Assembly: GCA_023133595.1 (NCBI GenBank)
Contig: JAGLWF010000001.1
Location: forward strand, 33,693 to 97,692
DNA: 64,000 bases
DNA from: Nanobdellota archaeon
Lineage (GTDB): Archaea > Nanobdellota > Nanobdellia > Woesearchaeales > WJKV01
Direction: 5' to 3'
This document shows positions 11,611 through 59,102 of the stretch, one piece after another (within the stretch, counting starts at the first letter, position 1; each line of letters opens with the position of its first letter). Under the pieces are notes generated by a model. It was not told where the DNA came from, made no database searches, and was given only the letters and a program-made list of their open reading frames with translations. The translations under genes were made by a program, and so were the position numbers.

Positions 11611-11853
11611 ATGATGGCAAGATTAGATCCTGAAAAGATAAGAAAGCAAGCTAAAAAGATTATGGATGAGTTTATTTCTGCATTAGACAAATGTCCAGAA
11701 GCCAAAAAATTAAGCTATGGCGCTCGTCGAGATAAAAACCAGAGGAAAGCTGGAAAGAGCAGGTACGAGAAGACAGATTTCCAAGAGAAAATTCTGGACA
11801 ATGCTCCGAAAGTCGACGACGACCAGATAGTTGCAGAGAAGAAGAAATGGTGA
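11611..11853 (+). CDS. gatC: Putative Asp/Glu-tRNA amidotransferase subunit C (GatC-like)
   Basis: 80 aa, immediately upstream of gatA and overlapping it by 7 nt. C-terminal ILDNAPKVDDDQIV resembles the GatC NAP motif. The N-terminal region is only weakly GatC-like. Confidence 0.45.
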   Translation: MMARLDPEKIRKQAKKIMDEFISALDKCPEAKKLSYGARRDKNQRKAGKSRYEKTDFQEKILDNAPKVDDDQIVAEKKKW

Positions 11854-14176: not shown

Positions 14177-14217
14177 AACCGAAGAGTTTATTAATGGTCT
14201 CTGATTTTTTATTCACA

Positions 14218-35283: not shown

Positions 35284-35388
35284 TACATGCATAGCACGCT
35301 CCACTAGATCAATAATATGAGTTAGAAGACGAGTCTAGGGAACTAGCCTGTTTGATCTGAAAGCTACGCTTGGTGCTATGCACATACT
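35284..35388 (+). repeat. ~105-nt element with 15-nt imperfect terminal inverted repeats (GTACATGCATAGCAC ... GTGCTATGCACATAC) and a central agaagacgagtcta motif; copy A
   Basis: A second, inverted copy lies at 42267-42368 with conserved ends and a similar length. Both copies end 43-44 nt upstream of an ATG, with a TATA box in between. Confidence 0.6.
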
Positions 35389-35431
35389 TCCTATCAAAAG
35401 GTTTATATATCGATTTGCTCTTTTTCTTTTC

Positions 35432-36754
35432 ATGATTGCAAAGATAGGTGATAAAGTCCGGATCAAAACAAAAGACCGGGAGATTCTTGGAGTTGTGATG
35501 CCTAACGAGACAGATACCTTAGTGCTAAAGCTTGATAGCGGGTATAATGTTGGAATCGACAAAAGAAAGATCAAGAAAACTGAGATTGTTGAAAAATACA
35601 ATCCTGGAAAAGAGGGGCCGCTAAAAACCAAGAAACCAAAGAAAGATCTGCCTGAGATTGCGATTCTCCATACTGGAGGAACCATTGCTTCTAAAGTTGA
35701 TTATAGGACTGGAGGTGTTGTTTCAAAGTTCACACCAGCAGAAATCCTGAAGATGTTCCCTGAATTGAAAGATATTGCAAATATTTCTTCAAAACTTTTG
35801 TTCAATATCTGGACAGAAGATATGCGTTTTGCAAATATCAAAAAAATAGCACAAGCAATCATGGACGAAGCAACAGATATTGTAGAAGGAAGAAGTGGAG
35901 TCAAGGGAGTTATTTTAACATTAGGGACTGATATACTGCCTATTGTTTCTGCTGCTCTTGCTTTCATGCTACAAAAATTACCAATTCCAGTAATACTTGT
36001 CGGTGCACAACGTTCTTCAGATAGGGGAAGTAGTGATGCTGCAATGAATCTTGTATGTGCAGCTGAATTCATTAAACAATCTGACTACAAAGGGATTGCA
36101 ATCTGTATGCACGCTTCATCTGACGATAAAGGATGTCATATTCTGCATCCCTGCAAAACAAGAAAGATGCATACCTCAAGAAGGGATGCTTTCAGGCCGA
36201 TCAATTGCAAGCCAATAGCAAAAATTGATTATCATACGCGAAAAATAGTATACCTTCAGGGATTTGATGTATATGACCCTGCGATATCTGAAAAATTAGC
36301 ACTAGAAGAAAAAGTTGGGCTGGTAAAGACCTATCCAAACATGTTTCCAGGACTAATTGACGCTTTCAAAGGCTTCAAAGGTCTTGTGATAGAAGGCACT
36401 GGTCTGGGCCATATGCCTGCTGCTTCTCAAAATAAAGAGAATAAATTGAACATTAAAATATTTGATGCTATAAAACGTCTAATCAAGAGTGGTTGTGTTG
36501 TTGTGATGACAAGTCAATGCGTCTATGGTGGAGTTCAGATGCATGTATACTCCAAAGGCATTGATCTGGTGAACGCAGGAATAATTCCAGCAAAGATGCT
36601 TCCAGAGACTGCATATATCAAACTTGCATGGTTATTAGGCAATTATTGCAAGAAAGGTGCAAAGAAAGATATTGAGAATGTCAAGAGGATGATGCAGCAA
36701 AACCTCGTCGGTGAAATGTTCGAAGTTATTGAGAAAGACACTTTTCTGATTTAA
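35432..36754 (+). CDS. gatD: Glu-tRNA(Gln) amidotransferase subunit D (asparaginase-like)
   Basis: Start moved to MIAKIGDKVRI. The ORF-track ATG lies inside the repeat element. Asparaginase motifs ILHTGGTIAS and GVILTLGTDIL. Confidence 0.8.
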   Translation: MIAKIGDKVRIKTKDREILGVVMPNETDTLVLKLDSGYNVGIDKRKIKKTEIVEKYNPGKEGPLKTKKPKKDLPEIAILHTGGTIASKVDYRTGGVVSKFTPAEILKMFPELKDIANISSKLLFNIWTEDMRFANIKKIAQAIMDEATDIVEGRSGVKGVILTLGTDILPIVSAALAFMLQKLPIPVILVGAQRSSDRGSSDAAMNLVCAAEFIKQSDYKGIAICMHASSDDKGCHILHPCKTRKMHTSRRDAFRPINCKPIAKIDYHTRKIVYLQGFDVYDPAISEKLALEEKVGLVKTYPNMFPGLIDAFKGFKGLVIEGTGLGHMPAASQNKENKLNIKIFDAIKRLIKSGCVVVMTSQCVYGGVQMHVYSKGIDLVNAGIIPAKMLPETAYIKLAWLLGNYCKKGAKKDIENVKRMMQQNLVGEMFEVIEKDTFLI

Positions 36755-36862: not shown

Positions 36863-37105
36863 GCGTCTCTATTTATCTTTTCTTTTTCTTCTTTTTCTTT
36901 TTGGTTGCTTTCTTTTTCTTTGCCATAACTATCACCTCAATTTGTATTTAAATATGTATAATTATATTTAAATGTTTCGAAAATTCGTATATGATTTCTA
37001 AAAACTATTAATCGTTTTGATTTTTTTCAGGATCAGAGCGAAAAAATCCGAAAACCAGAAGAAATTATCAAAATCTATATAAACAAGCAAATCTCATTGA
37101 AGATT

Positions 37106-38536
37106 ATGAAACGTGATTACAAAAAATTAGGGTTCAAGAGCGGACTTGAAGTGCATCAACAACTAGAAACTCATAAATTATTCTGCAATTGCCCGTCGCT
37201 GGTGCGCGGCAAAAAGAAGGATGTCAAGGTTGAAAGGCAACTGCGTGCAGTTGCTGGAGAAATGGGCAAAATCGATATTGCTGCAGCGTATGAGATGGAG
37301 AAAGGAAAAAAATTCATCTATGTTGGAGATTCTGATGATGTCTGTCTTGTTGAATTAGATGAAGAACCGCCGCATCCAATCAACCAAGAAGCACTGCAGA
37401 TCGCGCTTCAGATCGCAAAGATGATGAATGCTACAATTGTTGATGAAATCCAGGTCATGCGAAAGGTTGTTGTTGACGGCTCTAATGTTTCTGGGTTCCA
37501 GAGAACTATGCTGATAGCTACAGATGGCTTTATCGAAACTTCCAAAGGAAAAGTACGGATTCCTGGAATTTATCTTGAAGAAGAGGCCTGTCAAAGGCTA
37601 GATGAGGATAAAACATCCATAACCTGGGGCCTTGATCGATTAGGGATCAGTCTAATGGAAATAGCAACAGATACAGACATCAAGGATGCAGAACATGCAA
37701 AAGAAACAGCAGAAAAGATCGGTATGATCATGCGATCGACAGGGAAAGCAAAGAGAGGGATAGGAACTATCAGGCAGGACGTGAACATGTCTATCAAAGG
37801 ACATCCGCGGGTTGAGATCAAGGGTTTCCAAGACCTGAAATCAATGCCGAAGATTATTGAGAATGAGATAAAACGCGAGCTAAAAGAGATGAAGAAGAAA
37901 AAGAAGCTGGAGCCACACGTAAGAAAGGCAAATGCTGATGGCACAACAGATTATCAGCGGCCAATGCCTGGTGCTAAGCGTATGTATCCTGAGACTGATA
38001 TTGCTCCGATCAAGCCAGAAGCAAAAGGAATCAAGAAAGTTGAATTAATCGCAGATAAGGCTGAAAAAATAAAAAAGCTGGGGCTTGGAAAAGATCTTGC
38101 GAATCTTATTGCAAAAGAAGGATTGACAGACAAAATATCTGTGTTTGCAAAGAAATTCAAGAATGTGAAACCTGCATTTATTGCAGAAACAATGCTTCCG
38201 ACAATGAAAGAATTAAAACGAAAGTTTAATGTCGCGATTGAAAATATCACTGACAAACATTTTGAAGCAATATTTGATGCTGTTGACAAAGGAAAGATTG
38301 CAAAAGATTCTGTAATCGAAGTCATGAAGCGCATTCCAAAAGAGAAAGATGTTGTGAAGATAATGAAAGATTACACCCAGATGTCTGAGAAAGATCTTGA
38401 GAAAGAACTAAAGAAGATCGCAGAAGAGATGAAAGGCGCTCCATTCGGCGCAGTAATGGGAAAAGCAATGGGCAAGTTCAAAGGCAAAGCATCAGGCCAA
38501 AAAATAAGCGAGATATTGAAGAAGCTGTTGAAATGA
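37106..38536 (+). CDS. gatE: Glu-tRNA(Gln) amidotransferase subunit E (short form)
   Basis: N-terminus MKRDYKKLGFKSGLEVHQQLETHKLFCNCP is GatE-type. Start moved from the TTG to the ATG. The YqeY-like tail is present. It is about 140 aa shorter than typical GatE. Confidence 0.7.
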   Translation: MKRDYKKLGFKSGLEVHQQLETHKLFCNCPSLVRGKKKDVKVERQLRAVAGEMGKIDIAAAYEMEKGKKFIYVGDSDDVCLVELDEEPPHPINQEALQIALQIAKMMNATIVDEIQVMRKVVVDGSNVSGFQRTMLIATDGFIETSKGKVRIPGIYLEEEACQRLDEDKTSITWGLDRLGISLMEIATDTDIKDAEHAKETAEKIGMIMRSTGKAKRGIGTIRQDVNMSIKGHPRVEIKGFQDLKSMPKIIENEIKRELKEMKKKKKLEPHVRKANADGTTDYQRPMPGAKRMYPETDIAPIKPEAKGIKKVELIADKAEKIKKLGLGKDLANLIAKEGLTDKISVFAKKFKNVKPAFIAETMLPTMKELKRKFNVAIENITDKHFEAIFDAVDKGKIAKDSVIEVMKRIPKEKDVVKIMKDYTQMSEKDLEKELKKIAEEMKGAPFGAVMGKAMGKFKGKASGQKISEILKKLLK

Positions 38537-38567: not shown

Positions 38568-39692
38568 ATGCATGTGCTATATCTGAAATGTTTTGAATGC
38601 GGAAAGACTTATCTTGATACAAGACCAAGATACAGATGCGATTGTGGAGATCCTCTTGATATTGTTTATAATTATAATGAAATAAAAAGAAAAATCAGCT
38701 GGACTAAATTAAGAAAAAGGAAATTTGGCCACTGGCGTTATATAGAATTTTATCCAATAATCAAGAACAAAAACATCATTTCTCTTGGTGAGGGTGCAAC
38801 GCCACTTGTGAAAGCTAGAAGATTGTGCAAAAAGAAACCAACATTGAACAACCTATACTTTAAATGTGAAGGTGAGAATCAAACTGGTTCATTCAAAGAT
38901 AGAGGGACTACAGTAGAATTATCAAAAGCATTGGAATTCGGTGCAAAAAAGATTGTTGTTGCCTCGACAGGAAATATGGGCGCATCAATTTCAGCATATT
39001 CTGCAGCAGCTGGAATCAAAGCAAAAATCTATGTGCCAAAAGGCGCTCCAAAAGAGAAACTGCAACAAATCAAGAATTATGGTGCCAAAGTCGTTAATGT
39101 GGATGGCACATATAAGAAAGCAGCAGAACTGGCCTACAGAGATTTTAAGTCTGGCAAAGCATACCTCATGGGAGATTATGCTTATCGTGGAGAAGGAGAA
39201 AAATCTATTGCTTATGAAATAATGGACAAGATCAATGCCAAGTATATCATCTGTCCAATCGGCAACGGAACTTTGATAAGTGGTGTATGGAAAGGTCTAA
39301 AGGAGTTGAAAGCTGTTGGTCTTATCAAGAAACTGCCCATACTTATTGGTGTCCAGGCTACTGGTTGTTCTCCTGTTGTCACAGCATATCAAAAATATAA
39401 AGAAATCGTTCCTGTCAAGCCAAGGACAATAGCTTCTGCAATTGCATGCGGAGATCCGTCTGACGGAGATAAAGCACTTGTTGCATTATTCGAGAGCAAA
39501 GGTCATGGTGTGACTGTGGATGATAAAGATATATTAGCTGCTCGAAGAGAAATGGCAAAGAACGAAGGATTGGATTGTGAACCTAGTGGTGCTGTTGCAT
39601 ATGCTGGATTGAAGAAATTGAAATTGCCAAAGAATGCAATAAAAGTAGCTGTTGTGACTGGGCATGGCCTTAAAGATTTGAAGAATGTCTGA
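38568..39692 (+). CDS. thrC: Threonine synthase with an N-terminal zinc ribbon
   Basis: PLP-lysine motif GSFKDRG. N-terminal CFECG...CDCG. Fold-type II PLP enzyme layout. Confidence 0.8.
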   Translation: MHVLYLKCFECGKTYLDTRPRYRCDCGDPLDIVYNYNEIKRKISWTKLRKRKFGHWRYIEFYPIIKNKNIISLGEGATPLVKARRLCKKKPTLNNLYFKCEGENQTGSFKDRGTTVELSKALEFGAKKIVVASTGNMGASISAYSAAAGIKAKIYVPKGAPKEKLQQIKNYGAKVVNVDGTYKKAAELAYRDFKSGKAYLMGDYAYRGEGEKSIAYEIMDKINAKYIICPIGNGTLISGVWKGLKELKAVGLIKKLPILIGVQATGCSPVVTAYQKYKEIVPVKPRTIASAIACGDPSDGDKALVALFESKGHGVTVDDKDILAARREMAKNEGLDCEPSGAVAYAGLKKLKLPKNAIKVAVVTGHGLKDLKNV

Positions 39693-39700: not shown

Positions 39701-40762
39701 TTATTTCTTTATCACTTTCAGGAATCGTTTCACACTTTCTCTTGAATCCTGCTGTTTGAATCCAGGATATTTCCTTGCGATTTGAACATCACGCTTCAGC
39801 TTCAGCTTCTTTTGAGGTACTGAATAATACGTTCCCATGCGCTGATGATAATCACTCAAGTAGATTTGTTCAGTCTGCCCAAGTGTAGGAATGTATAAAG
39901 CTTTTTTACCTAAATGCGCTAGATCCATCATTGTTGTATATCCTGAGCGGGAAATTACTAATTTTGCACGATTCATCATCTCCTGCTGTTGCTTTACACT
40001 CAAACACGAGTGAATAAGAACATTATCTTTTCTTTTTGTAAATTCCAGTTCTGGCTTTCCCAGTGTTATAACCACATCTCCATCAAGATCTTTTGCTTGC
40101 TTGAGAACTTTCTCCTGAAAGATTGTTCGCTGCGGTTCTGGACCAGAGATAGAGATGAAATAATCAATATCTTGCTTTACCTTCATCCTTTCCATTGAAG
40201 ATAAGATCCCTAGATATTCAACGTCGTATTCGTCAAAGAATTTGAGATTATGTGATAAGTCCCCAGTCATATTAAATCCCTTATTATCTGGAACAAGAAC
40301 TTTTTTAAATTCACGAGAAAGTGCATAATTCATCACTTCCATTGTATTTTCAGCAAACTTGATCCGTTTTGGCACAATAAACCTTAGTTGATGTGACATA
40401 AAATAGCATGGAACCCGTTTGCTTGAAAAACCATATCTACAATCAGCAACAACAAGATCGTATCTATTTTTATGGAGCAATTGTCTGAACCGGCGTCTTT
40501 CCTGCTTCACAGCTTTAAACATCCTAGGAAGATAACTTGTGAATTTAATCGGAAAAAGCATTGCTTTCTTAGTATATGGCAAAGGATAGTCTGGGAAATC
40601 TATGAAATGGCATTCTGGAACTTCTTTTTTTAAGAATTCGAGCGAGCGTCCGCTTGTCGCAATAGTCACACTATGCTTTTTACGCAACAATGCCTTGATC
40701 AAAGGCAAATCTCGAGTTGCGTGACCTAACCCCCAGGTACATGTTCCAAAAAGTACATTCAT
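39701..40762 (-). CDS. GT-B-fold glycosyltransferase (MurG/UGT-like, family 1/28)
   Basis: N-terminal TWGLGHATR (a G-x-G-H loop). C-terminal SRSGYTTMMDLAHLGKKALYIPT resembles the MurG/UGT donor-binding region. Confidence 0.5.
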   Translation of the reverse strand: MNVLFGTCTWGLGHATRDLPLIKALLRKKHSVTIATSGRSLEFLKKEVPECHFIDFPDYPLPYTKKAMLFPIKFTSYLPRMFKAVKQERRRFRQLLHKNRYDLVVADCRYGFSSKRVPCYFMSHQLRFIVPKRIKFAENTMEVMNYALSREFKKVLVPDNKGFNMTGDLSHNLKFFDEYDVEYLGILSSMERMKVKQDIDYFISISGPEPQRTIFQEKVLKQAKDLDGDVVITLGKPELEFTKRKDNVLIHSCLSVKQQQEMMNRAKLVISRSGYTTMMDLAHLGKKALYIPTLGQTEQIYLSDYHQRMGTYYSVPQKKLKLKRDVQIARKYPGFKQQDSRESVKRFLKVIKK

Positions 40763-42222
40763 TTGCTAACTCCCAATACAACACAGTATCTATCTTCAAA
40801 GACTGGTGCTATTCCCTCCGAAGACAACAAATATTTAAGCATGTCGGGCAGTGTCTTTTTCATTATTACAAAGCGGGAATCAAAGTCTTGGCTGATGGTT
40901 TTTGCTGGATTCGGGTCCTTCATTGTAGTCAAATCATTGTATTTTTCGTACAGGACAGGATCATATTCCCAAAGATATAATGGATCAAGACCATAGACGT
41001 AAGTATTCTTATCATTGAAAAAGAAGATCGGAGGAAAATCTGAATACAGTGTAAAAATTGTCTCACCTCTTTTAGTCTGGCCTGCTGTCCATAACGCACA
41101 GGGCTCAAACAGATATGATGGATAGCTTTCAGCATCCTTTTTTATTATCTTCACTGTCTTATCCAGATTCAGGTAAATGAACGGAGCTGAAATAAGTATT
41201 AGGATTATTAATAATATGGGCATCGAGAGTTTTATCTTCTCCTTGTTTTTTTCAATAAAATTCTTAATGTCCATACTAGATATCAAGCCCAAACCAATCA
41301 GTGTGAATGGAACCCAGTATTCAAAGAACCTTTTTGCCTTAAATGTCATGATCAAAAATACCAAGGCAAGAAGAAACAAAGAAGCATATTCCTTGAACCT
41401 TCTTCTTCGGATAAACACTAGAAAACTTATCAGGAAACAGATGGCTGTGAACCAAAATATTGTTATTGCCAGCCACCAGGGATCAAAAGGTATTGAATCC
41501 AGAGAACGGAATAACAGCTGGACCGGCCATAATAATACTTTGATCTGTATCCATAAAAGAGAGAGATTATGCGGAAAATATGGATGAATACTGCTTCCTG
41601 TTGCAAGCCCCAGAAAGCAGTATAATGGTAGCTTATAGTTTAATTTCTTTTTATATAAAAGGTTCACAAGAACAACCAGAACGCATGCTCCAAACAGCAG
41701 GGGAAAAGAGGAATATGCCCATGCAAATAGAATTGAGAGTACGAACAAATGCTTATATCTCTTCTCAAGAATAAAATCCAAGCCTAATATCAGGAATATC
41801 ACGCCGACCTGGAATCCGCGCGAAAAGCTTGCTCTTGCAAGGTATAATGGAGAAGATGCAAAAAATAGGAGCGACCAGAAGAATGCCAGATCAACCTTTC
41901 TTTTCCGCAAGAACCAATATATCAATGTTGGGACTAAAGCTGAGAGAACAACAGCTGCCAGTTTTGCACCATAATTAAGATTAAAGTAGGTAAACGGAAT
42001 AAGGAAGAAATGGTACAAAACATTAGTATCTGCTTCTGAAAAAACAGAGAACTTCCAGAACGGCTGGCCAGAGAAAAGGCCGTTATCTTTCAGATATTCT
42101 GCATATTTGATATGAAAATAACTGTCATTGCCAATCACTGTTGGAACTGAAAATTGCACATAATAAAGCAGTGCAAAGAAAAGAATGAATGCCAATATTA
42201 TCTTGAGATCAGACTTATTCAT
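40759..42222 (-). CDS. Polytopic membrane protein, possibly a GT-C-fold glycosyltransferase (ArnT/PMT-like)
   Basis: 487 aa with about 11 TM helices. Overlaps the downstream GT-B gene by 4 nt. No OST WWDYG motif. Confidence 0.4.
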   Translation of the reverse strand: MNKSDLKIILAFILFFALLYYVQFSVPTVIGNDSYFHIKYAEYLKDNGLFSGQPFWKFSVFSEADTNVLYHFFLIPFTYFNLNYGAKLAAVVLSALVPTLIYWFLRKRKVDLAFFWSLLFFASSPLYLARASFSRGFQVGVIFLILGLDFILEKRYKHLFVLSILFAWAYSSFPLLFGACVLVVLVNLLYKKKLNYKLPLYCFLGLATGSSIHPYFPHNLSLLWIQIKVLLWPVQLLFRSLDSIPFDPWWLAITIFWFTAICFLISFLVFIRRRRFKEYASLFLLALVFLIMTFKAKRFFEYWVPFTLIGLGLISSMDIKNFIEKNKEKIKLSMPILLIILILISAPFIYLNLDKTVKIIKKDAESYPSYLFEPCALWTAGQTKRGETIFTLYSDFPPIFFFNDKNTYVYGLDPLYLWEYDPVLYEKYNDLTTMKDPNPAKTISQDFDSRFVIMKKTLPDMLKYLLSSEGIAPVFEDRYCVVLGVSK

Positions 42223-46864: not shown

Positions 46865-46935
46865 ACAAATATATAAGCTTTTTGTTTTGATTCTAGCAAG
46901 ATTTATAAAAAGATAATTTTACTAAATCATATTAT

Positions 46936-47009
46936 GGGGACATAGTTTAACCTGGCTAGAGCGGCCGGCTCCAGACCGGCAAATCGGGGTTCAAATCCCC
47001 GTGTCCCCA
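46936..47009 (+). tRNA. tRNA-Trp (anticodon CCA), no intron, CCA not encoded
   Basis: Acceptor GGGGACA/UGUCCCC with discriminator A. Anticodon arm GCCGG-CUCCAGA-CCGGC. T-arm CGGGG-UUCAAAU-CCCCG. aaatatataagc TATA about 55 nt upstream. Confidence 0.8.
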
Positions 47010-47076
47010 TTTTATAGTCCCAGTAATTTTAAATAATGAAGATATTTCTCTCGAAAAGTGGAGCGGGGGTTTAAAA

Positions 47077-48090
47077 ATTAAAAAAGCATTAATTACTGGA
47101 ATAAGCGGACAGGATGGATTTTTTTTAACGCAGCTTCTTCTTGGAAAAGGATATGAAGTTCACGGACTTTTCAGGAGAAATAGCCAGGCATCATTAGGTT
47201 CATCAGAAGGCTTGGAAGATAAAACCAAAGTAATTGTTCATTGGGGAGACATGACTGATCATCAATTCATAAACGATCTAATCAAAAAACACGGGTTTGA
47301 TGAAGTATATCATCTGGCAGGGCAAAGTTTTGTCTGGCTTAGTTTTTCAAATCCAATTTATACCCATAATGTCAATGCAATGGGAACCCTAAATTTGGTC
47401 GAGGCCATCAGAGAAGAATCTCCAAGGTCAAAAATGTATTTTGCCGCAACATCTGAATTGTATGGTAAAGTCAAAGAAATACCCCAGAATGAAGAGACCC
47501 CATTTCATCCAAGAAGTCCATACGCAACATCAAAACTTGCAGGCTTCTGGACCATGAAAAATTATAGGGAGAGTTACAATCTATTCTTGTGCAATGGAAT
47601 ACTGTTTAATCATGAAAGCGAGATGCGGGGACCAGAATTTGTAACAAGAAAGATTACACTGGCAGCTGCCAAAATCAGTTTAGGAATGCAAGATCATCTC
47701 GAACTAGGAAATCTCGATGCAAAGAGAGACTGGGGCTATGCAAAAGATTATGTCTATGGCATGTGGCTGATTCTTCAACATGATAAACCTGATGATTTTG
47801 TCCTGGCAACAAACGAGGCACATAGTGTAAGAGAGTTTGCTGAAGCTGCGTTTGGACATGCAGGCATTGATATTGAATGGCAAGGTCAAGACGAGGATAC
47901 AGTCGGATTAAAAAGAGGCACTGACCAAGTTTTAATCAAGATAAATCCAGAATTTTACAGGCCTGCTGAGGTTGATGTCCTGCAAGGAGATTATTCAAAA
48001 GTTAAGAAAGTTCTTGGATGGGAACCAAAAATCAAATTTAAAGAGTTAGCCAAATTAATGGTTGAGCATGACTTATCTCTATTTAGATAG
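47077..48090 (+). CDS. gmd: GDP-mannose 4,6-dehydratase (SDR family); no canonical in-frame start codon, so the 5' end is uncertain
   Basis: In-frame IKKALITGISGQDGFFLTQLLLGKGYEVHG is the canonical GMD N-terminus. Also GILFNHES, LGNLDAKRDWGYAKDYV and PDDFVLAT. The ORF track begins at an internal TTG at 47212. The coordinate 47077 assumes an ATT start after GGAGCGGGGG. Confidence 0.7.
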   Translation: MKKALITGISGQDGFFLTQLLLGKGYEVHGLFRRNSQASLGSSEGLEDKTKVIVHWGDMTDHQFINDLIKKHGFDEVYHLAGQSFVWLSFSNPIYTHNVNAMGTLNLVEAIREESPRSKMYFAATSELYGKVKEIPQNEETPFHPRSPYATSKLAGFWTMKNYRESYNLFLCNGILFNHESEMRGPEFVTRKITLAAAKISLGMQDHLELGNLDAKRDWGYAKDYVYGMWLILQHDKPDDFVLATNEAHSVREFAEAAFGHAGIDIEWQGQDEDTVGLKRGTDQVLIKINPEFYRPAEVDVLQGDYSKVKKVLGWEPKIKFKELAKLMVEHDLSLFR

Positions 48091-48257
48091 GCAGGCAGAA
48101 ATGTTGTCTCCCATATGGGATTAACGTGTGCCTATTATAGAGTGGCAAATCTAGCGAAACCTTTAAATAATAATTGCTACTTCTTAATGCTAACACAGTC
48201 GTATCTGCGAAGGGGTTGAGCGGCTGAAAATCGATAATGCTTTTTGGGGGTAAAAAA

Positions 48258-49751
48258 ATGGAACATATTCAACACGGATTATATTCGATGTTTGGTAGAG
48301 GTTATAATTTCTTAAAGAGAACTGGATTGGGTCTTGCTACAGGAATCGGTCTTGGAACTGTATTATTCTTTGGCAGTGCTGATGAAGCAAATGCCCAAGA
48401 TGTGGATCTTAGTGATCTGGTAGATGATGTTTTCAGAACAAAACAAACTCCTGAAGAATCTACCCCAAGTGTTAAAACTGAAAATCAGAGACGATTTTCA
48501 GAAGTATATGATGAGATGGATAGCAAAAGCGGACTTCAATACGGATATTTTGCAGAAGCGCGCGTGAAAGGATCAACAAACAGAGAAACAGAATATGACA
48601 GTTTCAGAGGCTCTATTGAAATAGGAAAATTCCTTTGGGGCGATAGCAAATGGAATGGAAGAGTTAAATTCGAATATAATGATACTGATGGAAGAGAAGA
48701 ATTCTTCGAAATTTCTGGAGGTGCAGATTATAGACTTTCTGATGCTCTTACAGCTGGATTCAAAGCATTTGGCGGAGACCATAGTATTGGTGGAGAAGGA
48801 AGAATAAGATTAACAATCGATCTTGGAAGCTATTTTAAAGATGCAACAGCAACTGTTTTTGGCAGAGCTGGTGGAAGCAATAGAGACGATAGAATAAGAA
48901 GCATAACACACAGTTTAATTGACAGTGATCAGGAAATCAGAGATGGATATGGTGAAATCGGACTGAAAGTAACCACAAAAAACGGTTCTTATTTCACAAT
49001 CTCAGATATTTACAAATGGATTCATTCTGAGATGTGGGCAAATATGCCAACAAGTGCTGATGCAGACATCGAAGTTGGAACCAATGCTTTGATAGCATCC
49101 CTCGGACATAAAGCAAAAGATTATTCTGTAGATTTTACAGGAATCTGGACACATACCAGGACAAATAATAAACTTAAAGTTGCAGATGCTATAGACGAAT
49201 CTGAACTCTTAAGAGGACAGGCAACTGGATTCTACCATCTAAGAGGAAAAGGCCATAGTGTTGGTCTAATGGTTGGTGGAGACAAGAACGGCTGGGATGT
49301 CAGAGGTATTTACATTTTCCAAGACAATAAATCTGCAAGCATTGCAAAAGAGCTTGAAAAATTAAAGACAGAAACAGATGCGATCTCAAAAGAAGAGATC
49401 CAGAACAGACTGGAAAAATTATCACTTGTCAGCGCACTGGTTCACAAAGTTGAAGTTGGTGGGCGAAGAAGTGAAGTTTCAGGTGCTCGTAGCTGGGAAG
49501 CTTTTGCAGGATACGAACTGACTCTAAGTATGAACAGCAAGTTCGTCAAGCAATTCAATCTAGATTTTGAATTGACGTATGGAGAACTGTATCCAACATA
49601 CGGATCGCACAGAGGCTATTTCAGAGGAAGAGCAAATGCAGAAGCCCGATTCGGAAAAGGCTGGTACCTGCTTGGAGGCGCTAACGGAAATTCATACGAG
49701 GGCCAGAAGCCAAGCTGGAACTTTGAAGGCGGCTTTGGAAAACGGTTTTAG
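48258..49751 (+). CDS. Secreted beta-strand-rich protein with amphipathic alternating patterns and a C-terminal Phe (outer-membrane-protein-like beta-barrel candidate)
   Basis: Signal peptide n-region MFGRGYNFLKR, h-region TGLGLATGIGLGTVLFF, c-region GSADEANA. Gly/Tyr/Asp/Arg-rich alternating hydrophobic pattern, e.g. RIRLTIDLGSYF, VDFTGIWTHT, FNLDFELTYGELY. Ends ...FEGGFGKRF. GGGGGT RBS. Confidence 0.5.
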   Translation: MEHIQHGLYSMFGRGYNFLKRTGLGLATGIGLGTVLFFGSADEANAQDVDLSDLVDDVFRTKQTPEESTPSVKTENQRRFSEVYDEMDSKSGLQYGYFAEARVKGSTNRETEYDSFRGSIEIGKFLWGDSKWNGRVKFEYNDTDGREEFFEISGGADYRLSDALTAGFKAFGGDHSIGGEGRIRLTIDLGSYFKDATATVFGRAGGSNRDDRIRSITHSLIDSDQEIRDGYGEIGLKVTTKNGSYFTISDIYKWIHSEMWANMPTSADADIEVGTNALIASLGHKAKDYSVDFTGIWTHTRTNNKLKVADAIDESELLRGQATGFYHLRGKGHSVGLMVGGDKNGWDVRGIYIFQDNKSASIAKELEKLKTETDAISKEEIQNRLEKLSLVSALVHKVEVGGRRSEVSGARSWEAFAGYELTLSMNSKFVKQFNLDFELTYGELYPTYGSHRGYFRGRANAEARFGKGWYLLGGANGNSYEGQKPSWNFEGGFGKRF

Positions 49752-49862: not shown

Positions 49863-51224
49863 ATGAAGCCACTTGATTTCATAGCGAAAACAACAAGAAT
49901 AGCAATACCTGTAGGATTAGGTTTAGCATTATCATTAGGAGGAACAGCTTTTGCAGGAGAAGGCCCAGCAGAAGAAAGAACTCCAAAGAAGTTCAAAGTT
50001 AAGATTAAGAAGAAAAAACCTGTAGAAAAACCAAAAGAAACTCCTAAAGAAACTCCAAAGGAAACTCCTAAAGAGACACCAAAGGAAACTCCAAAGGAGA
50101 TACCAAAAGATTTAGGATATCATGTTTTCAAAGTATTTGGAGAAGAGATTGATGGAAATGAAAAAGATTATGTTCCAGCTCTAGAAAAATTTAGAGAAGA
50201 AATCGTAAAATTAACAAAAGGAACAGAAAATTGTCCAGATGGAGAGTTTCAATTCTACAAGTTTAAACTGGCAAAAGAGGGTGTACGGCTTGAGATCCAT
50301 CATAAAAAAGGTGACAAAACTGTTGTATATACTAATGGTCTTAAGAAAGGAGATTGGGAAGCTATCAGGTCTGCAATTGAATTAGGAGAGAAGACAGCAA
50401 CAAGAATTGAAAAAGAAGTTGAAGGCAAGAAAAAGAGCTTTGTTCTTCCAAGAGAGATCAGTGATTGTGCTGATGTAGAGATTATCGGAGATAAAGCATA
50501 CTTGAAGTTCAAGAATCTTCCTGGTTTCAGAGCAAATGGTTCTTACGAACTTAATGCAAGACTTGCAGCTGAATACATTGGATTATCATTTGCAGAAGAC
50601 AGTCTTATGAAATTAGACAAAGAAGCAAGAGCTGCAAAGATCAAGAAACTAAGAGCGCTTTACGATACACTGACAAAAGTAAGATTCGGTGTAAATGAAA
50701 AAGGAGAATATTCACTAGAGATGTACCAGACAGGAAAAGAAGAACCTACTGTTGTTCCATTGAACAGAGAAGCAGTTTCAACTTTCCTTGAAAGAGTTAA
50801 AAGAGTTGGACAGTGGAAACAAGTGAAAGAAGCAGAATACAAGAAAGCTGGTAACTCCTTGAAACAAAAAGATGATCACAAAAGTCCAGGCACAGAGTTT
50901 GGAAAACGTAATGAAGACATGTTAGTCATAGGAGACGAATATGTTTGGTCTGATCTTCTAGCAGTTGCTAATGAAGATGCAGATGTCAAATATGTTGTTG
51001 GACTAATGAAAAAGCTTCAGAATTCAAAATGGACTGCTGGAAAAGAACTGCAGATAAGAAGAGATAAGAATCCAGTTGATGAAGCTCGAAGTGTATTCCA
51101 CTTCAAAGCAGGCGATAAGGATGACTGGCACGAGTTCAGACTGCCGCAAGCAGAAAAATTCAATGCTGGTTACAAGAAGCTGGTAGGGCTTTACAAACCT
51201 GCAGAAGAAAAATCAAAAGATTAG
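49863..51224 (+). CDS. Secreted protein with a (KETP)n tandem repeat linker
   Basis: Signal peptide IAIPVGLGLALSLGGTAFA. Linker KETPKETPKETPKETPKETPKEIPK. GGGGGTAA RBS. Consensus promoter cgaaacatttatatat about 70 nt upstream. Confidence 0.6.
   Translation: MKPLDFIAKTTRIAIPVGLGLALSLGGTAFAGEGPAEERTPKKFKVKIKKKKPVEKPKETPKETPKETPKETPKETPKEIPKDLGYHVFKVFGEEIDGNEKDYVPALEKFREEIVKLTKGTENCPDGEFQFYKFKLAKEGVRLEIHHKKGDKTVVYTNGLKKGDWEAIRSAIELGEKTATRIEKEVEGKKKSFVLPREISDCADVEIIGDKAYLKFKNLPGFRANGSYELNARLAAEYIGLSFAEDSLMKLDKEARAAKIKKLRALYDTLTKVRFGVNEKGEYSLEMYQTGKEEPTVVPLNREAVSTFLERVKRVGQWKQVKEAEYKKAGNSLKQKDDHKSPGTEFGKRNEDMLVIGDEYVWSDLLAVANEDADVKYVVGLMKKLQNSKWTAGKELQIRRDKNPVDEARSVFHFKAGDKDDWHEFRLPQAEKFNAGYKKLVGLYKPAEEKSKD
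50031..50109 (+). repeat. 6-7 tandem copies of a 12-nt unit (ccaaaggaaact) encoding KETP
   Basis: Direct read. Confidence 0.7.
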
Positions 51225-51264: not shown

Positions 51265-53019
51265 ATGAAGAAAACTATTTTCGCAACAATCTTGGTTTTT
51301 ATGCTATTGGTACAAATAGTTCCAGTATTGGCAGATAATTATGCGCCTATTGTTACCATAATCACATCTGCAGATCATGGAGAAACACCAATGTCTGTTT
51401 TCTTTACATCTCATGTAATTGATGAAAATCCAGACGCACTAGAATATTCATGGGATTTTGGAGACGGAGCAACTTCTGATTCAGAGGATGGCTTTAACAT
51501 CTATATGATTTCAGGAACATACACTGTTACATTATCAGTACGAGATGACACTGGAAATATAGGAATGGACCAAGCTACAATTGTTGTCGAAGAAGAAAGC
51601 ATAAACAATTATGCACCTATTGTAAATATTCTTCCAAGCCAGAAAAAAGGCAATGCACCTTTATCTGTTGCATTCACAGCAGCTATCATTGATGAAAATC
51701 CAGAGACGCTACAATACTCATGGGATTTCGGAGATGGAGCAACATCAGATTTTGAAGATACTATTAATACATACATGATCCCTGGAACATACACAGTCAC
51801 TCTAATGGTTAGAGATGATAATGGGAACATAGGAATAGACCAGGTTGAGATTGTTGTTGAAGATAAAACAAACACACCTCCAGTTGCTACTATAGTCGCA
51901 AGTCCTGTTTATGGAGGAGCGCCATTGAATGTTATTTTCAATGGAGAAGCTAGCATAGATGCTGATGGTGACTTCCTTACATTTACATGGGATTTTGGAG
52001 ATGGTGAAGGAAGCTCAGACAGAATGCCAGTTCATACTTACACAAGTCAAGGAACTTACATTGCAACACTTACTGTAGACGATGGACACAGAGCAAGATC
52101 AACTGATACAGAATTGATTGTTGTTGGAAACACATTCAATGTTCCACCAATCGCTATTGCAGATGCAATTCCAAGATCAGGAAACGTGCCTCTTGTTGTA
52201 ACATTCCTTGGACAAGGAATTGATACTGATGGAGAAATCGAAAGATACTTCTGGGATTTTGGAGATGGTACTACATCTGATTCACAGAACCCGGTCCATA
52301 CTTATGCGATCGAAGGAACTTTCAGAGCAGAACTTATTGTTTATGACGATTTTGGAGGAATTGGAAAAGACGAGATCCTAATCACAGTTGGTTCTCCAGC
52401 TGGAGTTGATCCATTCATTACACCAATCCCAGACCAGACAATCGAATTCAATCAACCATACAATTACCAAGTTGTTGCATTCGATCCATTAAATGATCAA
52501 CTGACATATGCAATGACAAACCAACCAGCTGGTGTTGACATTGATCCAAATACTGGTTTGATCAGTGGATTCCCAAGCCAGCTAGGAATTTTCAATGTTG
52601 CTGTTATTGTCAGCGATGACAATGGCGGAGAAGCAAGAGACGAGTTTATGCTTGAAGTTGTAGTTGTGCAGATCATTGAAAAGCCTAAGAAATACAGGCC
52701 AAGCTTGCTTTCAGTTGACAGAATCTTCCTGACAAGCGGAGAAATCCTAACTGTCAATGACTTGATCGAAGCTGGAGTTTTGGTCAATAACGATGCAGAC
52801 TTTGATATGGAGAATATCAAAGTGACTGTATCAGTTCCAGAACTGGGGTTATACGGTTCAAGCTTAATCGAGGATCTTGACAACAATAGGGATTATCTTG
52901 CAAAGATTGCAATCATCGACCCTATTCCGCAAGGAGTAAAGGGAGATTTCATTGTTAGAATCACTGTAAGCAATGATCATCTTAGAAGGATACTCCACAG
53001 AGAGATCACTGTAATTTAA
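51265..53019 (+). CDS. Secreted protein with four PKD-type domains plus additional beta domains
   Basis: Signal peptide. Repeated YSWDFGDGATSD...GTYTVTL.VRDD.GN blocks (four times), the classic WDFGDG PKD motif. Confidence 0.8.
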   Translation: MKKTIFATILVFMLLVQIVPVLADNYAPIVTIITSADHGETPMSVFFTSHVIDENPDALEYSWDFGDGATSDSEDGFNIYMISGTYTVTLSVRDDTGNIGMDQATIVVEEESINNYAPIVNILPSQKKGNAPLSVAFTAAIIDENPETLQYSWDFGDGATSDFEDTINTYMIPGTYTVTLMVRDDNGNIGIDQVEIVVEDKTNTPPVATIVASPVYGGAPLNVIFNGEASIDADGDFLTFTWDFGDGEGSSDRMPVHTYTSQGTYIATLTVDDGHRARSTDTELIVVGNTFNVPPIAIADAIPRSGNVPLVVTFLGQGIDTDGEIERYFWDFGDGTTSDSQNPVHTYAIEGTFRAELIVYDDFGGIGKDEILITVGSPAGVDPFITPIPDQTIEFNQPYNYQVVAFDPLNDQLTYAMTNQPAGVDIDPNTGLISGFPSQLGIFNVAVIVSDDNGGEARDEFMLEVVVVQIIEKPKKYRPSLLSVDRIFLTSGEILTVNDLIEAGVLVNNDADFDMENIKVTVSVPELGLYGSSLIEDLDNNRDYLAKIAIIDPIPQGVKGDFIVRITVSNDHLRRILHREITVI

Positions 53020-53285: not shown

Positions 53286-54560
53286 ATGGAGACAAAGAAA
53301 ACTGCTGTTTTAGGCATTTTAGCACTATTAGTCTTTAGTATGGTAGCTTTAGTTTCTTTATCAGCTACTGTTTCAGCAGTTCCTGTTGCAGTTGATTTTG
53401 TAAAAATCGACGGTGATATTGTTTCAGGAAATGAACTTATCGAGGTAGACAGGAACACAAACCTTGACATCAAGGTTAAATTGCTTGCTTTGGCAAACGC
53501 AGAAGACGTTAGAGTCGAAGCAATGATTCAAGGATTCGAGCACGGAGTAATATCTGATGAATCTGACATCTTTGACATCGACGCTGGCAAGACATACACA
53601 AAGAAACTTTCAATGCATCTTCCAGATGAAATGGAAAGAAACAACTACATGTTAAGAATAATCATAAGCGACAGAGACAGTGAATTATTCCAACAAAACT
53701 ACAATCTTGACATTGACACTGCAAGACACGCATTGAAGATTGAAGACGTTGCTTTCAGTCCTGGAACAGAAATCCAAGCAGGTAGATCCTTGCTTACGAC
53801 TGTTCGCCTTGAAAACAAGGGAGAACAAGACGAAGAAGTAAAAGTAACTGTTGCAATTCCAGATCTAGGAATCCAGCAATCAGACTTCATTGATGAAGTT
53901 GAGAGCGATGAAACAGTTACATCTGAGGAACTGTTCCTTAGAATACCAGCATGTACAGCACCTGGTCAGTACACAGCTGAAATCACATTGTCCTACAATG
54001 ACGATTTTGACAGTGTATCAGAACAGAGAACAATCACTGTTATAGACGGTGGTCTTTGCAATGTACAAGCTGCTCCGCAAGCAGATAAGACACTTATCGC
54101 AATTGCAACAGAAGGAAACGCAAACATCAAAATTGGTCAAAAAGCAATCTATCCAGTTACATTAACAAATGCAGCTGGAGAAGCTAAGATCTACTCAATC
54201 GCAGTAGACGGTGCTGATTGGGCAACTGTTGAGGTAAGCCCTTCAAATGTTGTTGCTTTAGCTCCTGGTGAGATCAAGACTACATTCGTAGCTCTAACAC
54301 CTAACGAGGGCACAAGCGGAACACAACTATTCAACATTAACATCAAAGCTGGCGAAGAGACACTTAAACAAGTGAACATGTCAACAAATGTTGAAGCTGG
54401 TCAAGCGAAATCAACCCTAGTAAGAGGCCTTACAATCGGTCTGATAATCATCATAGTTATCCTAGTTATCCTAGGATTAATCCTTGCATTCAGCAGAATG
54501 AAAGGCGGAAATGATGACTTTGAAGATTTCGAAGACGAAGGTCAAAAAACTTACTACTAA
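53286..54560 (+). CDS. Surface (S-layer-like) protein: signal peptide, Ig-like beta domains, C-terminal TM anchor and a short acidic tail ending YY
   Basis: Paralog of the 54833-56095 protein: shared blocks NYNLDID, SLLTT and the TLTNAG..AK.Y.I...D.DWA block, plus the same topology. GGAGG RBS. Confidence 0.6.
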   Translation: METKKTAVLGILALLVFSMVALVSLSATVSAVPVAVDFVKIDGDIVSGNELIEVDRNTNLDIKVKLLALANAEDVRVEAMIQGFEHGVISDESDIFDIDAGKTYTKKLSMHLPDEMERNNYMLRIIISDRDSELFQQNYNLDIDTARHALKIEDVAFSPGTEIQAGRSLLTTVRLENKGEQDEEVKVTVAIPDLGIQQSDFIDEVESDETVTSEELFLRIPACTAPGQYTAEITLSYNDDFDSVSEQRTITVIDGGLCNVQAAPQADKTLIAIATEGNANIKIGQKAIYPVTLTNAAGEAKIYSIAVDGADWATVEVSPSNVVALAPGEIKTTFVALTPNEGTSGTQLFNINIKAGEETLKQVNMSTNVEAGQAKSTLVRGLTIGLIIIIVILVILGLILAFSRMKGGNDDFEDFEDEGQKTYY

Positions 54561-54832
54561 ATTTTTTTTATTTTCTTTTTTCTCTTATTCTTTTTATCCT
54601 GAAATCCTAGATTAAAGACTATCTTAAAGCCTACCCTCAATTGACTCAATAACTCGCTAAATAGGTCGCTATTTCTTTGGTTATTTTCCCCAGAATTCCA
54701 TATACAAATAAGGCTCTCATATGTCCCAGGGCAGTGATTAATACCCCATAAGCTTTATATACTTCTTGTTACTCTACAGTGATTACATAAGAAACAGGGG
54801 TTGTAGAGAACATATTGGGGTTGATAAAAACA

Positions 54833-56095
54833 ATGAAGGGGAATAAAATTGTTGGAAGTTTAATATTACTAGCTATACTAGTAATCTCTGTTCTGCCTAG
54901 TGCAGCAGCAGTAGGAATCCTTTTCGATAGTGTCAAAATAAACGGCGATATTGTCGCAGACGATGAGATTATAAGCGTAGAAAGAGATTCTGACCTGAAT
55001 ATCAGGCTGCGGATTTTAGGCCTTGATAATGTCGAGAATGTGCGTATAGAAGCACTTATCTCAGGTTTCGAATACGAGCTGATTAGAGACAGCACTGCTT
55101 CGTTTGAAGTCGATGCTGACGAGATCTTCACAAAGGACCTGACACTTCATATCCCCGCAAATATGCCAAACGATGATTTCCTATTAAGAATATTAGCATA
55201 CAATCGTGACGATCTGACATATGAGCAGAACTACAATCTGAACATTGATTCAAAACGGCACGATGTACGTATCCTGGACATAATATTTTCACCAGGAGCT
55301 ACACTTGAAGCTGGTACATCCTTGTTGACAACTATCAAGACATGGAACGCTGGAAGCAAGTTCGAAAGTGGAAAGCTTACCATAAGCATCCCAGATCTTG
55401 CAATCGAGCAGGCTGCTTTCATATCAATGGAGCCTGGACAAGCAAAAGTCAGTGAAGAATTGTTCATGCGGATCCCTAAATGCGCAGAAGCAAAGGAATA
55501 CACAGCTGTTATCGAATATACATCTTCAACTGTCTCTGACAGAAAAGAGAAGCAGATCAATGTATTGGCAAGCGACCAGTGTCCTGCAAACAGCCAACCT
55601 GTAGAGGACAAGACAATGGTCTCTATCGGAACCACAAACCAGGTTATCCAACATGGAGAGACAATGAGCTATCCAATAACATTGACAAATGCAGGATCAG
55701 AAGCTAAACAATACCAGATCAAGGTTGCAGACGATGATTGGGCAGTTTCACAGGTCAGTCCAATTGGAGATATCTTTGTAAACCCAGGAGATTCACAGAC
55801 AGTCCATGTCACAATCTCACCGTTAGAGACAGCAGTTGGAAAGAATGTCTTTACAGTGAAGATTCTTTCAGACGGAAGTCTTCTGAAATCAGTTCCTCTT
55901 GCAGCAGAGATCGCTGGAAAAGCACCAAAACAGGAAAGCAAGACAAGCACCACAATCCTTGCACTAGAGATTGTCCTTGGAATAATCATTGTTATCCTGA
56001 TACTGATCGCTTTCACAGCAGTTGCAAGGAAACGAAGAGAATCCATGGATGAAGGATACGATGAACAGGAAGAGATAGACACTTCCTACTACTGA
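54833..56095 (+). CDS. Surface (S-layer-like) protein, paralog 2
   Basis: Start moved from the TTG to the ATG after ttgggggttg. C-terminal TM LALEIVLGIIIVILILIAFTAV and tail ...EEIDTSYY. Confidence 0.6.
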   Translation: MKGNKIVGSLILLAILVISVLPSAAAVGILFDSVKINGDIVADDEIISVERDSDLNIRLRILGLDNVENVRIEALISGFEYELIRDSTASFEVDADEIFTKDLTLHIPANMPNDDFLLRILAYNRDDLTYEQNYNLNIDSKRHDVRILDIIFSPGATLEAGTSLLTTIKTWNAGSKFESGKLTISIPDLAIEQAAFISMEPGQAKVSEELFMRIPKCAEAKEYTAVIEYTSSTVSDRKEKQINVLASDQCPANSQPVEDKTMVSIGTTNQVIQHGETMSYPITLTNAGSEAKQYQIKVADDDWAVSQVSPIGDIFVNPGDSQTVHVTISPLETAVGKNVFTVKILSDGSLLKSVPLAAEIAGKAPKQESKTSTTILALEIVLGIIIVILILIAFTAVARKRRESMDEGYDEQEEIDTSYY

Positions 56096-58175: not shown

Positions 58176-58931
58176 CTATTTTCTTAATACAAATATCATG
58201 TCACTTCCTATTTTTGGAAACCAGTCTCCCAAGCGAATCGCTATCTCTTTCAAAAATTTAGGAGCAAATCTTGATCTCATTGGAAAAGTGACATTGGAAG
58301 TTACAATCGAGATGATATTTAATTTATACTCCTTAAGCTGCTGTTTCAGTATCGGGACTGTATAAGCTCTGATGTGACCTGCTCCGCCAGGTATGCGATA
58401 TTCAGGGACAAAATTCGGATATTTTCCAAACAATATCCTAACACGGTTTGTCAGAGAAACCAGGTTTGGGGTTGTCAAGATTAAGATCCCTCCTTTTCTT
58501 AATACTCTTTTCAGTTCTGAAATGAAAAAGTCAGTGTCATACAGATGCTCGATTACTTCAGATGCCAGAACTAGATCAAAAGACCCGTCGGGATACGGTA
58601 TGGCTTTCTCAAGATTATGCACTTTAGCCTTGACACCCCTATTATTGGCTGATTTAACTGCATTTTTAGAGATATCAATACCATGCGTCTCAAATCCAAA
58701 GTCTTTTTTTAATTTTGCAGAAAAAGAACCATCAGCACATGCGACATCTAAGGTTTTTTGAAATCTATATTTTCTATTTAATCTTCTAATGATCCTATAG
58801 ATCTTAAAGATGTAGTATTTATGCTTGTCAAACGCACGATATTCTGAATATCTTTTATCCTGGTCAGTCTCAGCATTGATAGCTTTCTTCATATGTTCAG
58901 CAAAAAATATCCAATTAATAAATATATTCAT
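58176..58931 (-). CDS. Class I SAM-dependent methyltransferase (start uncertain: 58931 or 58892)
   Basis: LDVACADGSF (motif I), GIDIS, and LVLASEVIEHL (type-11 MTase-like). The ORF-track start (58970) would overlap the 5S rRNA. Confidence 0.6.
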   Translation of the reverse strand: MNIFINWIFFAEHMKKAINAETDQDKRYSEYRAFDKHKYYIFKIYRIIRRLNRKYRFQKTLDVACADGSFSAKLKKDFGFETHGIDISKNAVKSANNRGVKAKVHNLEKAIPYPDGSFDLVLASEVIEHLYDTDFFISELKRVLRKGGILILTTPNLVSLTNRVRILFGKYPNFVPEYRIPGGAGHIRAYTVPILKQQLKEYKLNIISIVTSNVTFPMRSRFAPKFLKEIAIRLGDWFPKIGSDMIFVLRK

Positions 58932-58944
58932 TAGAAAATAAAGG

Positions 58945-59057
58945 TGGACAGTTTTCCTAGTTTCCCGCATATAAATGCAGTACAGCTAAAAACGGTAACC
59001 TGCTTAACTTCCGAGTTCGAAATGGGATCGGGTGAACCAGGTCCCTATGACCGTCCA
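58945..59057 (-). rRNA. 5S ribosomal RNA (stand-alone, ~113 nt)
   Basis: The minus strand reads ...CCCGAUCCCAUUUCGAACUCGGAAGUUAAGC..., the universal 5S loop C/helix III core. Terminal helix I UGGACGGU/ACUGUCCA. Confidence 0.75.
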
Positions 59058-59102
59058 TATCGAGATATCTAAGAGGTATTTATAAAGGTTTTGGATATAA
59101 AC

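Follow-up and report, generated by a model that had tools for sequence, protein, structure and literature searches.

Beta-barrels that span the membrane are seen as a hallmark of the outer membranes of bacteria and of the organelles that derive from them. Porins and other bacterial outer-membrane barrels, such as OmpF, PorB, LamB and AlgE (Pfam clan MBB), carry a Sec signal peptide, are free of cysteine and rich in glycine and aromatic residues, are built from long amphipathic hairpins that are charged on one side, and end in a terminal phenylalanine. Ihomp1 (Imp1227), the pore-former of the outer envelope layer of the archaeon Ignicoccus, is a small alpha-helical protein, and to our knowledge a beta-barrel is yet to be described from an archaeal outer membrane. 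Archaea that have been reviewed as double-membraned include Ignicoccus, ARMAN, the SM1 euryarchaeon (Altiarchaeum) and Methanomassiliicoccus; the Woesearchaeota are not listed among them. Here we analyze a 64-kb stretch of DNA, referred to below as the window, from a Nanobdellota archaeon of the Woesearchaeales (contig JAGLWF010000001.1), in which an open reading frame (ORF) of 497 residues encodes a candidate outer-membrane protein (OMP). The candidate shares with the bacterial porins all of the properties listed above, its amphipathicity scores fall within their range, and as a pore-former of an archaeal outer envelope layer it would be comparable to Ihomp1. The analysis confirmed that, as far as can be judged from its residues, the protein has the style of an OMP sequence, so that the description 'OMP-like' is quantitatively justified. 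It also showed the candidate to be a real, native, Woesearchaeota-specific envelope protein that heads a conserved cluster of surface-protein genes. We treat the fold as a barrel, its insertion into a membrane and the existence of an outer membrane in this archaeon as hypotheses.

The coordinates of the gene, its parts and its neighbors are collected in Table 1. Translation probably begins at the listed ATG because it is preceded by GGGGGT and six A's and because the equivalent methionine opens both known homologues. An initial annotation of the window had credited the product with a Sec signal peptide, a Gly/Tyr/Asp/Arg-rich domain, stretches of alternating hydrophobic and polar residues and a GGFGKRF terminus ending in phenylalanine, and each of these features was recovered. 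The signal peptide has distinct n-, h- and c-regions. Its h-region (T22-S40) reaches a best 15-residue Kyte-Doolittle value of 1.89, and cleavage is predicted at A44-N45-A46/Q47, with the A-x-A-Q motif invariant across the three homologues. In their alignment, 15 of the first 20 residues are invariant, compared with an identity of only 54–56% over the whole protein and ∼55% over the mature part. The mature part is without an alpha-helical anchor, the maximum 19-residue Kyte-Doolittle value being 0.54. We infer that the candidate is exported through Sec by means of a cleavable signal peptide of unusual length and conservation. An xFLK-like motif brought a Tat signal into consideration, but RGYNFLK contains no twin arginine and the idea was dropped. 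The sequons for N-glycosylation, scarce and unconserved, were uninformative.

A long and conserved n-region was found in one other protein of the cluster, the product of the adjacent gene (gene 2). The signal peptides of the remaining three, a secreted protein with PKD domains and two S-layer-like proteins (SL1 and SL2), are ordinary and strongly hydrophobic (Kyte-Doolittle values of 2.8–3.0), with neither an extended conserved n-region nor a weak Gly-rich h-region. Thus, the GLGLA-type signal peptides that had been attributed to the whole cluster are a property of the candidate and gene 2. The shared n-region pattern suggests a sequence-specific targeting or export step, and maybe a dedicated route, for these two proteins. 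A possible analogy is provided by the ESPR of type V autotransporters and the YSIRK motif of Gram-positive surface proteins, where an n-region comparable to the ∼21 residues of the candidate is likewise far more conserved than the mature part. The ESPR and YSIRK motifs themselves are unrelated to GLYSMFxRGYNFL.

Relative to the other proteins of the window, the mature candidate is enriched in tryptophan (2.3x), glycine (1.9x), serine (1.6x), arginine (1.5x), tyrosine (1.3x) and aspartate (1.3x), depleted in proline (0.28x) as well as isoleucine, leucine and lysine, and devoid of cysteine. It ends in ...NFEGGFGKRF, of which GFGKRF is kept in all three homologues, and places phenylalanine at positions -1, -5 and -9 and tryptophan at -11.

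To quantify strand amphipathicity, two scores were computed, and each was set against shuffled versions of the sequence in question: the mean period-2 hydrophobic moment on the Wimley-White octanol scale in 9-residue windows, and the number of non-overlapping 9-mers resembling transmembrane (TM) strands, which have uncharged, apolar residues at every one of five alternate positions and a mean below -0.35 kcal/mol. The alternation in the candidate is beyond chance. Its moment z is 3.5 (3.3–3.5), and 8–9 TM-strand-like 9-mers were counted where ∼3.9 were expected (z ∼2.5), or 1.78 per 100 residues. The two homologues (P0002 and P0003) have moment z values of 1.6 and 2.1 with 1.76 and 1.75 9-mers per 100 residues, respectively; the corresponding values are 4.3 and 2.18 for OmpA, 2.6 and 2.97 for OmpF, and 2.4 and 1.66 for LamB. 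In period-2 amphipathicity the candidate ranks first of the 49 ORFs in the window. When 90 E. coli ORFs were ordered by the combined score, the top four were OmpA, OmpF, BamA and LamB, all 82 non-OMP controls scored 3.3 or less, and the candidate, with a score of ∼6, would place third. Additional negative controls gave combined scores of 0.6 (RhsA), -2.1 (OspA) and 2.4 (OspB). A YD/RHS beta-cocoon, which the richness in glycine, tyrosine, aspartate and arginine might bring to mind, was rejected given the low RhsA value and the lack of any RHS_repeat match. E. coli TamB (L009 5113-8001) received a combined score of 9.5, with a moment z of 5.8, a strand-count z of 3.7 and 1.82 9-mers per 100 residues. 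Because this non-barrel protein scores higher than the candidate, the statistic is a measure of lipid-facing beta-sheet and is not specific to a closed barrel; what it indicates, at the level of the sequence, is that the candidate carries a beta-sheet with one lipid-like face. More generally, strand periodicity separates porins from the 82 E. coli proteins yet is topped by TamB, which calls for caution with OMP assignments based on periodicity only.

Structure prediction gave a compatible picture. AlphaFold2 was run on the full-length protein and on the mature domain (residues 92–497), each time with the three-sequence alignment. Both low-confidence models predict 19–21 strands of 9–14 residues in a succession of hairpins with one helical hairpin insertion (residues 356–390), an arrangement that is neither a beta-sandwich nor a beta-helix. 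The best-predicted part is the six-strand meander at the C-terminus, with a predicted local distance difference test (pLDDT) score of 50–65. In nearly every strand one face is apolar or aromatic and the other heavily charged, as in WGVFY/NRKE, GGILI/ERRTD and WAAYLLM/EFGETS, and the apolar faces remain apolar in the homologues. Invariant positions make up 52% of the strands, versus 38% of the loops, and reach ∼90% in the block of residues 321–355. A Foldseek search of the PDB with model 1 returned almost exclusively bacterial outer-membrane barrels (PorB, OmpT, chitoporin, AlgE and LptD) at TM-scores of ∼0.2. With model 2, no match fell below E = 0.02, and the non-significant matches include hemophilin and phage receptor-binding proteins. 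Overall, the predicted fold leans toward a barrel without establishing one.

Homologues were sought across ∼15 billion proteins, including a word-indexed search of 5.8 billion clusters. The family comprises three sequences in total: the candidate, a protein from an NCBI Woesearchaeota metagenome-assembled genome (55% identity) and one from a Logan assembly (53%). An exhaustive hidden Markov model search of 1.84 billion cluster representatives recovered only the candidate's own cluster, a scan of the GTDB species genomes recovered only the known NCBI contig, and two scans of metagenome and contig collections, including the JGI metagenomes, yielded zero further homologues. Two sub-threshold Pfam pointers were obtained, both to outer-membrane barrel families. 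LptD_2 (PF19838) matched the candidate at E = 0.089 (11.9 bits, cut-off 22.5), in a region that overlaps the helical insertion. DUF481 (PF04338) matched residues 119–172 of P0003 at 20.6 bits (E = 4.9e-4, gathering cut-off 21.1), covering 54 of 210 profile positions in the N-terminal hairpins; the candidate and P0002 were unmatched. A search with gene 2 returned only low-complexity matches to DnaJ-like proteins.

The initial annotation had raised the possibility that the candidate is a horizontally acquired bacterial-type OMP. The general OMP-like look of the protein and the sub-threshold matches to bacterial families just described are all that speaks for a recent import by horizontal gene transfer, or for a mis-assembly that placed a bacterial fragment in an archaeal contig. 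On the other hand, the GC content (0.401), the GC content at third codon positions (0.285) and the synonymous codon usage (z = +0.75) are all typical of the window, the GGGGGT style of ribosome-binding site is common to the candidate and its neighbors, and no bacterial homologue turned up among the 5.8 billion clusters, the 1.84 billion representatives or the two contig collections. Moreover, the gene has an unchanged position in two further Woesearchaeota contigs, where the order candidate - gene 2 - PKD protein - S-layer-like proteins is conserved (the candidate and gene 2 span 48258-51224 in the window, 8001-11005 in NCBI contig L001 and 278-3312 in L002); contig L001 additionally keeps the upstream neighborhood of seryl-tRNA synthetase (SerRS) and GatE. 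With native codon usage, a conserved archaeal gene order, homologues only in Woesearchaeota and a source contig of 277,731 bp, both horizontal transfer and assembly chimerism were rejected, and we consider them highly improbable.

Within this conserved block, the candidate and gene 2 are a fast-evolving pair. Between the window and contig L001, identity is 89% for GatE, 88% for SL1, 87% for a glycosyltransferase, 83% for SerRS and 73% for the PKD protein (71–73% between genomes), versus 54% for the candidate and 49% for gene 2 (42–49% to its positional orthologues). Their speed of change also explains why relatives further away escape detection. The rate also suggests that the candidate is exposed and under diversifying pressure.

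In the reading that we tentatively favor, and hold at somewhat under an even chance, the candidate is porin-like: a barrel embedded in lipid beyond the cytoplasmic membrane, in a layer that belongs to the cell itself or to a host. The mature protein of ∼450 residues would consist of an acidic linker, a short helix, ∼20 amphipathic strands, a helical hairpin and an aromatic C-terminus, with the sheet closing into a barrel of ∼18–20 strands. This barrel would sit beyond the cytoplasmic membrane, in the cell's own outer layer or in a host-cell membrane, and would serve as the channel of a surface apparatus assembled from the products of the five-gene cluster (the candidate, gene 2, the PKD protein and the two S-layer-like proteins). 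A more specific version, that it is a genuine membrane-embedded pore invented in Woesearchaeota, with no detectable bacterial ancestry and assembled, in a so far unrecognized outer lipid layer of the cell or, once secreted, in the host membrane, without an insertase of the BAM type (BAM, the machinery for assembly of beta-barrels), is conceivable but appears rather doubtful.

A number of observations weigh against a porin-like barrel. The candidate differs from the bacterial porins in its host, an archaeon for which neither an outer membrane nor BAM machinery is known, in its helical hairpin insertion of 35 residues and in its extended, conserved n-region, and it has no detectable homology to them. 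The models are poor, with pLDDT values of 35.7 for the full length and 45.4 for the mature domain and predicted template-modelling (pTM) scores of 0.34 and 0.46, and neither closes into a barrel. No significant match was found in Pfam, NCBIfam or the PDB, and none to any OMP family by sequence or by profile. Membership in the YdiY/DUF481 family was likewise rejected: after E. coli ydiY had been fetched, 198 relatives gathered and 22 of them aligned, hhalign returned a probability of 0.2%, and the candidate is twice the length of YdiY. Since only three sequences are available, covariation analysis is impossible. In the canonical beta-signal the last residue is aromatic and positions -3, -5, -7 and -9 are hydrophobic, whereas the candidate has lysine at -3 and glycine at -7; the E. 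coli BamA terminus (...IGKTW) contains a similar Gly-Lys pair. In the amphipathicity test, all proteins are outscored by a non-barrel lipid-conducting beta-taco, TamB, and the one-dimensional alternation pattern is identical for a lipid-facing surface and a buried core. The 64-kb window contains no Omp85/BamA-type insertase or other diderm marker. Finally, a literature search found no outer membrane reported for Woesearchaeota, no ultrastructure for the lineage and no archaeal beta-barrel OMP, except that a possible distant PopA relative in Altiarchaeales is mentioned in passing in one article (PMC12228718).

The same features could also be accounted for by an all-beta surface protein that is soluble or associated with the S-layer, for instance an adhesin, a component of the lattice or a soluble barrel/handle protein of the hemophilin or TbpB kind, with the apolar faces buried in a core or an interface. 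We regard this as a real possibility, albeit an unlikely one. The candidate leads a gene cluster that also encodes archaeal surface proteins of an ordinary kind (the PKD protein, SL1 and SL2) in a lineage with no known outer membrane, a buried core gives the alternation just mentioned, exposed adhesins typically evolve fast, and both hemophilin and phage receptor-binding proteins are among the Foldseek matches of model 2. In addition, small fimbrial subunits and chaperones reach 1.4–1.9 TM-strand-like 9-mers per 100 residues. However, the large soluble beta proteins among the controls lie well below the candidate, with combined scores of ∼1.2 or below for the PKD protein, SL1, SL2, PqiB, DegP, MalM, RhsA and OspA, and many apolar faces of the candidate are rich in glycine, alanine and threonine (AAVGT, GFGAAAF, GGILI), which makes them poor material for a packed core. 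Its ∼20 consecutive long hairpins contain no recognizable Ig, PKD or other soluble domain, and Ig-like domains are usually well modelled by AlphaFold from shallow alignments, whereas the candidate was not. It also lacks an Ig-like or PKD domain, a C-terminal hydrophobic segment and a match to NF033506, and therefore falls outside the archaeal S-layer/PACE-CTERM proteins.

An open lipid-binding groove is a less likely explanation still. Here the sheet would form a beta-taco or beta-jellyroll, similar to TamB/AsmA or LptC/LptA, that reaches from the cytoplasmic membrane to the surface or the host and shuttles lipids or other hydrophobic compounds for an archaeon that may be unable to make them itself. 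Many DPANN archaea lack lipid synthesis; this lipid-scavenging argument is drawn from DPANN archaea at large and is not derived from the genome at hand. The candidate resembles the TamB/AsmA-like proteins in having a hydrophobic segment at the N-terminus and a long beta region behind it, its density of amphipathic strands is near that of TamB, which tops the amphipathicity test, and its models stayed unclosed. If the signal peptide were an anchor that stays uncleaved, as in TamB and LptC, the near-invariant N-terminal 20 residues would fit as its cytoplasmic stub. The host dependence of cultivated DPANN archaea, as described in two articles (PMC11329633, PMC11291902), was also counted in favor of a groove. 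Yet the conserved A-x-A/Q motif, a good signal-peptidase site, and the weak Gly-rich h-region favor cleavage over anchoring. With ∼450 residues, compared with more than 1,200 for TamB, the candidate is far shorter than known bridge-like lipid transporters, and TamB has an Omp85 partner. The AsmA, TamB/DUF490 and LptC profiles of Pfam did not match even at E ≤ 10, and there is no indication of lipid handling within the window. Explanations of other kinds together account for a small remainder of the probability.

Table 1. Positions of the candidate gene, its parts, the surface-gene cluster and other features of the window.
Feature	Coordinates	Strand	Remarks
TATA-like box (TTTAAATA)	48162..48169	+	putative archaeal promoter ∼90 nt 5' of the start codon; read directly from the sequence
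Ribosome-binding site GGGGGT	48246..48251	+	six-A spacer, then ATG
Candidate, 497-aa ORF	48237/48258..49751	+	likely start ATG 48258
Signal-peptide n-region, residues 1-21 (M1-R21)	48258..48320	+	extended, basic, almost invariant: ..Q.GLYSMF.RGYNFL[KR][KR]
h-region and c-region	48321..48395	+	Gly-rich; A-x-A/Q site after A46
Acidic linker, then short helix (residues 75-91)	48396..48548	+	linker poorly conserved; helix conserved, ENQRxFxEVYEEM
N-terminal beta region, residues 98-355	48549..49322	+	∼13-15 amphipathic strands predicted in both AlphaFold runs
Top-conserved block, residues 321-355	within 48549..49322	+	QATGFYH.R...HS.GLMVGGDKNGWDVRGIY.FQ
Helical hairpin insertion, residues 356-390	49323..49427	+	∼35 residues, charged, heptad-like; helices 356-372 and 378-389 in both models
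C-terminal beta region, residues 391-497	49428..49748	+	six consecutive predicted strands of 10-14 residues, turns of 3-9 residues
C-terminus GFGKRF and stop	49731..49751	+	invariant; terminal Phe; aromatics at -1, -5, -9, -11
Gene 2, 453-aa orphan secreted protein	49863..51224	+	Gly-rich signal peptide, PKET repeats, Lys/Glu-rich body; always beside the candidate
Gene 2 n-region	49863..49910	+	KPLEWIAKxxRI
PKD protein, secreted	51265..53019	+	four PKD domains (PKD_4 E = 2.5e-73) and He_PIG Ig-like; syntenic in L001 and L002
SL1, S-layer-like type I membrane protein	53286..54560	+	signal peptide, Ig-like domains, C-terminal TM helix, acidic tail
SL2, S-layer-like paralogue	54815..56095	+	likely start ATG 54833
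T2SSE-family ATPase, 1,328 aa	2840..6826	-	type II/IV secretion family
GatA-type amidase	11847..13220		
Asp/Asn-type tRNA synthetase, class II	14194..15984		bacterial-type GAD insertion
Asp/Asn-type tRNA synthetase, class II	16027..17331		without GAD insertion
IS605 OrfB/TnpB-type gene	18098..19309	+	HTH (helix-turn-helix), OrfB and Cas12f-like TNB domains
GatB	19362..20732		
GatD	35378..36754		
GatE	37097..38536		
PLP (pyridoxal phosphate)-dependent enzyme (PALP)	38568..39692	+	no counterpart in L001
487-aa ORF	40759..42222	-	no Pfam match; no counterpart in L001
tRNA-Trp	46935..47010		76 nt, intron-less
GDP-mannose 4,6-dehydratase (GMD)	47065..48090	+	GGGGGT at 47065-47070; ATT codon at 47077; listed ORF from TTG 47212
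264-aa ORF	58176..58970	-	
5S rRNA	58943..59058	-	

The surroundings of the candidate had been described as archaeal, with four secreted-protein genes following it. Four genes with signal peptides were indeed found downstream, and the window genes are archaeal, including GatD, GatE, Cdc48, HerA, an Mre11-like phosphoesterase, NFACT and the 5S rRNA. The intron-containing tRNA cited in the same context did not hold up, the sole tRNA found in the window being the intron-less tRNA-Trp. A common GGGGGT-type ribosome-binding site had been claimed for the cluster as well. GGGGGT is present before the candidate and, followed by 6–7 nt, before gene 2 and the GMD gene; the sites of the PKD gene (AGGGGGA) and SL1 (CGGAGGA) differ from it, though they are still G-rich. 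SL1 and SL2 are ∼40% identical to one another, and both have a TM helix and an acidic cytoplasmic tail ending in TYY or SYY. Their scores of 96 and 81 bits, respectively, against the NCBIfam model PACE-CTERM-PROT fall below the cut-off of 110 but relate them to the putative S-layer protein of the Pacearchaeota type.

Several other features of the window are recorded here in their own right. The GMD ORF as listed misses the first 50 positions of the profile, and the frame extends upstream across the Rossmann motif (KKALITGISGQDG) to an ATT codon that lies six nt behind a GGGGGT. The upstream frame and the ribosome-binding site suggest either that ATT serves as a non-canonical start or that an ATG has mutated to ATT. 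Truncation likewise affects the public gene call (279 residues), and the gene is missing from this position in L001. An intein that carries a LAGLIDADG homing-endonuclease domain interrupts the T2SSE-family ATPase. The IS605 OrfB/TnpB-type gene lies in a low-GC patch (0.295–0.318) between the aspartyl/asparaginyl-tRNA synthetase genes and gatB, and both amidotransferase systems, GatA/GatB and GatD/GatE, are apparently present. The PLP-dependent enzyme and the 487-residue ORF fall between genes that are syntenic with L001 (GatE, the glycosyltransferase and SerRS), and their lack of a counterpart there points to genes gained or lost locally between close relatives. With its 5' end the 264-residue ORF runs 28 nt into the 5S rRNA gene, which lies on the same strand; the real start of the ORF is therefore probably located further downstream.

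If the candidate is a barrel pore, it would be the first membrane protein of the beta-barrel type with an archaeal origin, and if it resides in a host membrane, it would be a channel by which a DPANN symbiont taps its partner. A native archaeal porin-style protein would bear on the building of archaeal double envelopes or symbiont-host contacts, on the origin of beta-barrels and their assembly without BAM, and on the acquisition of metabolites or lipids by DPANN archaea. The small size of the protein and its freedom from cysteine suit it to refolding and bilayer assays. If it turns out to be a groove or a new soluble fold, the locus would still present a rapidly evolving pair of surface genes at the head of a Woesearchaeota envelope cluster, a position and rate that make the pair a good candidate for a determinant of host interaction.

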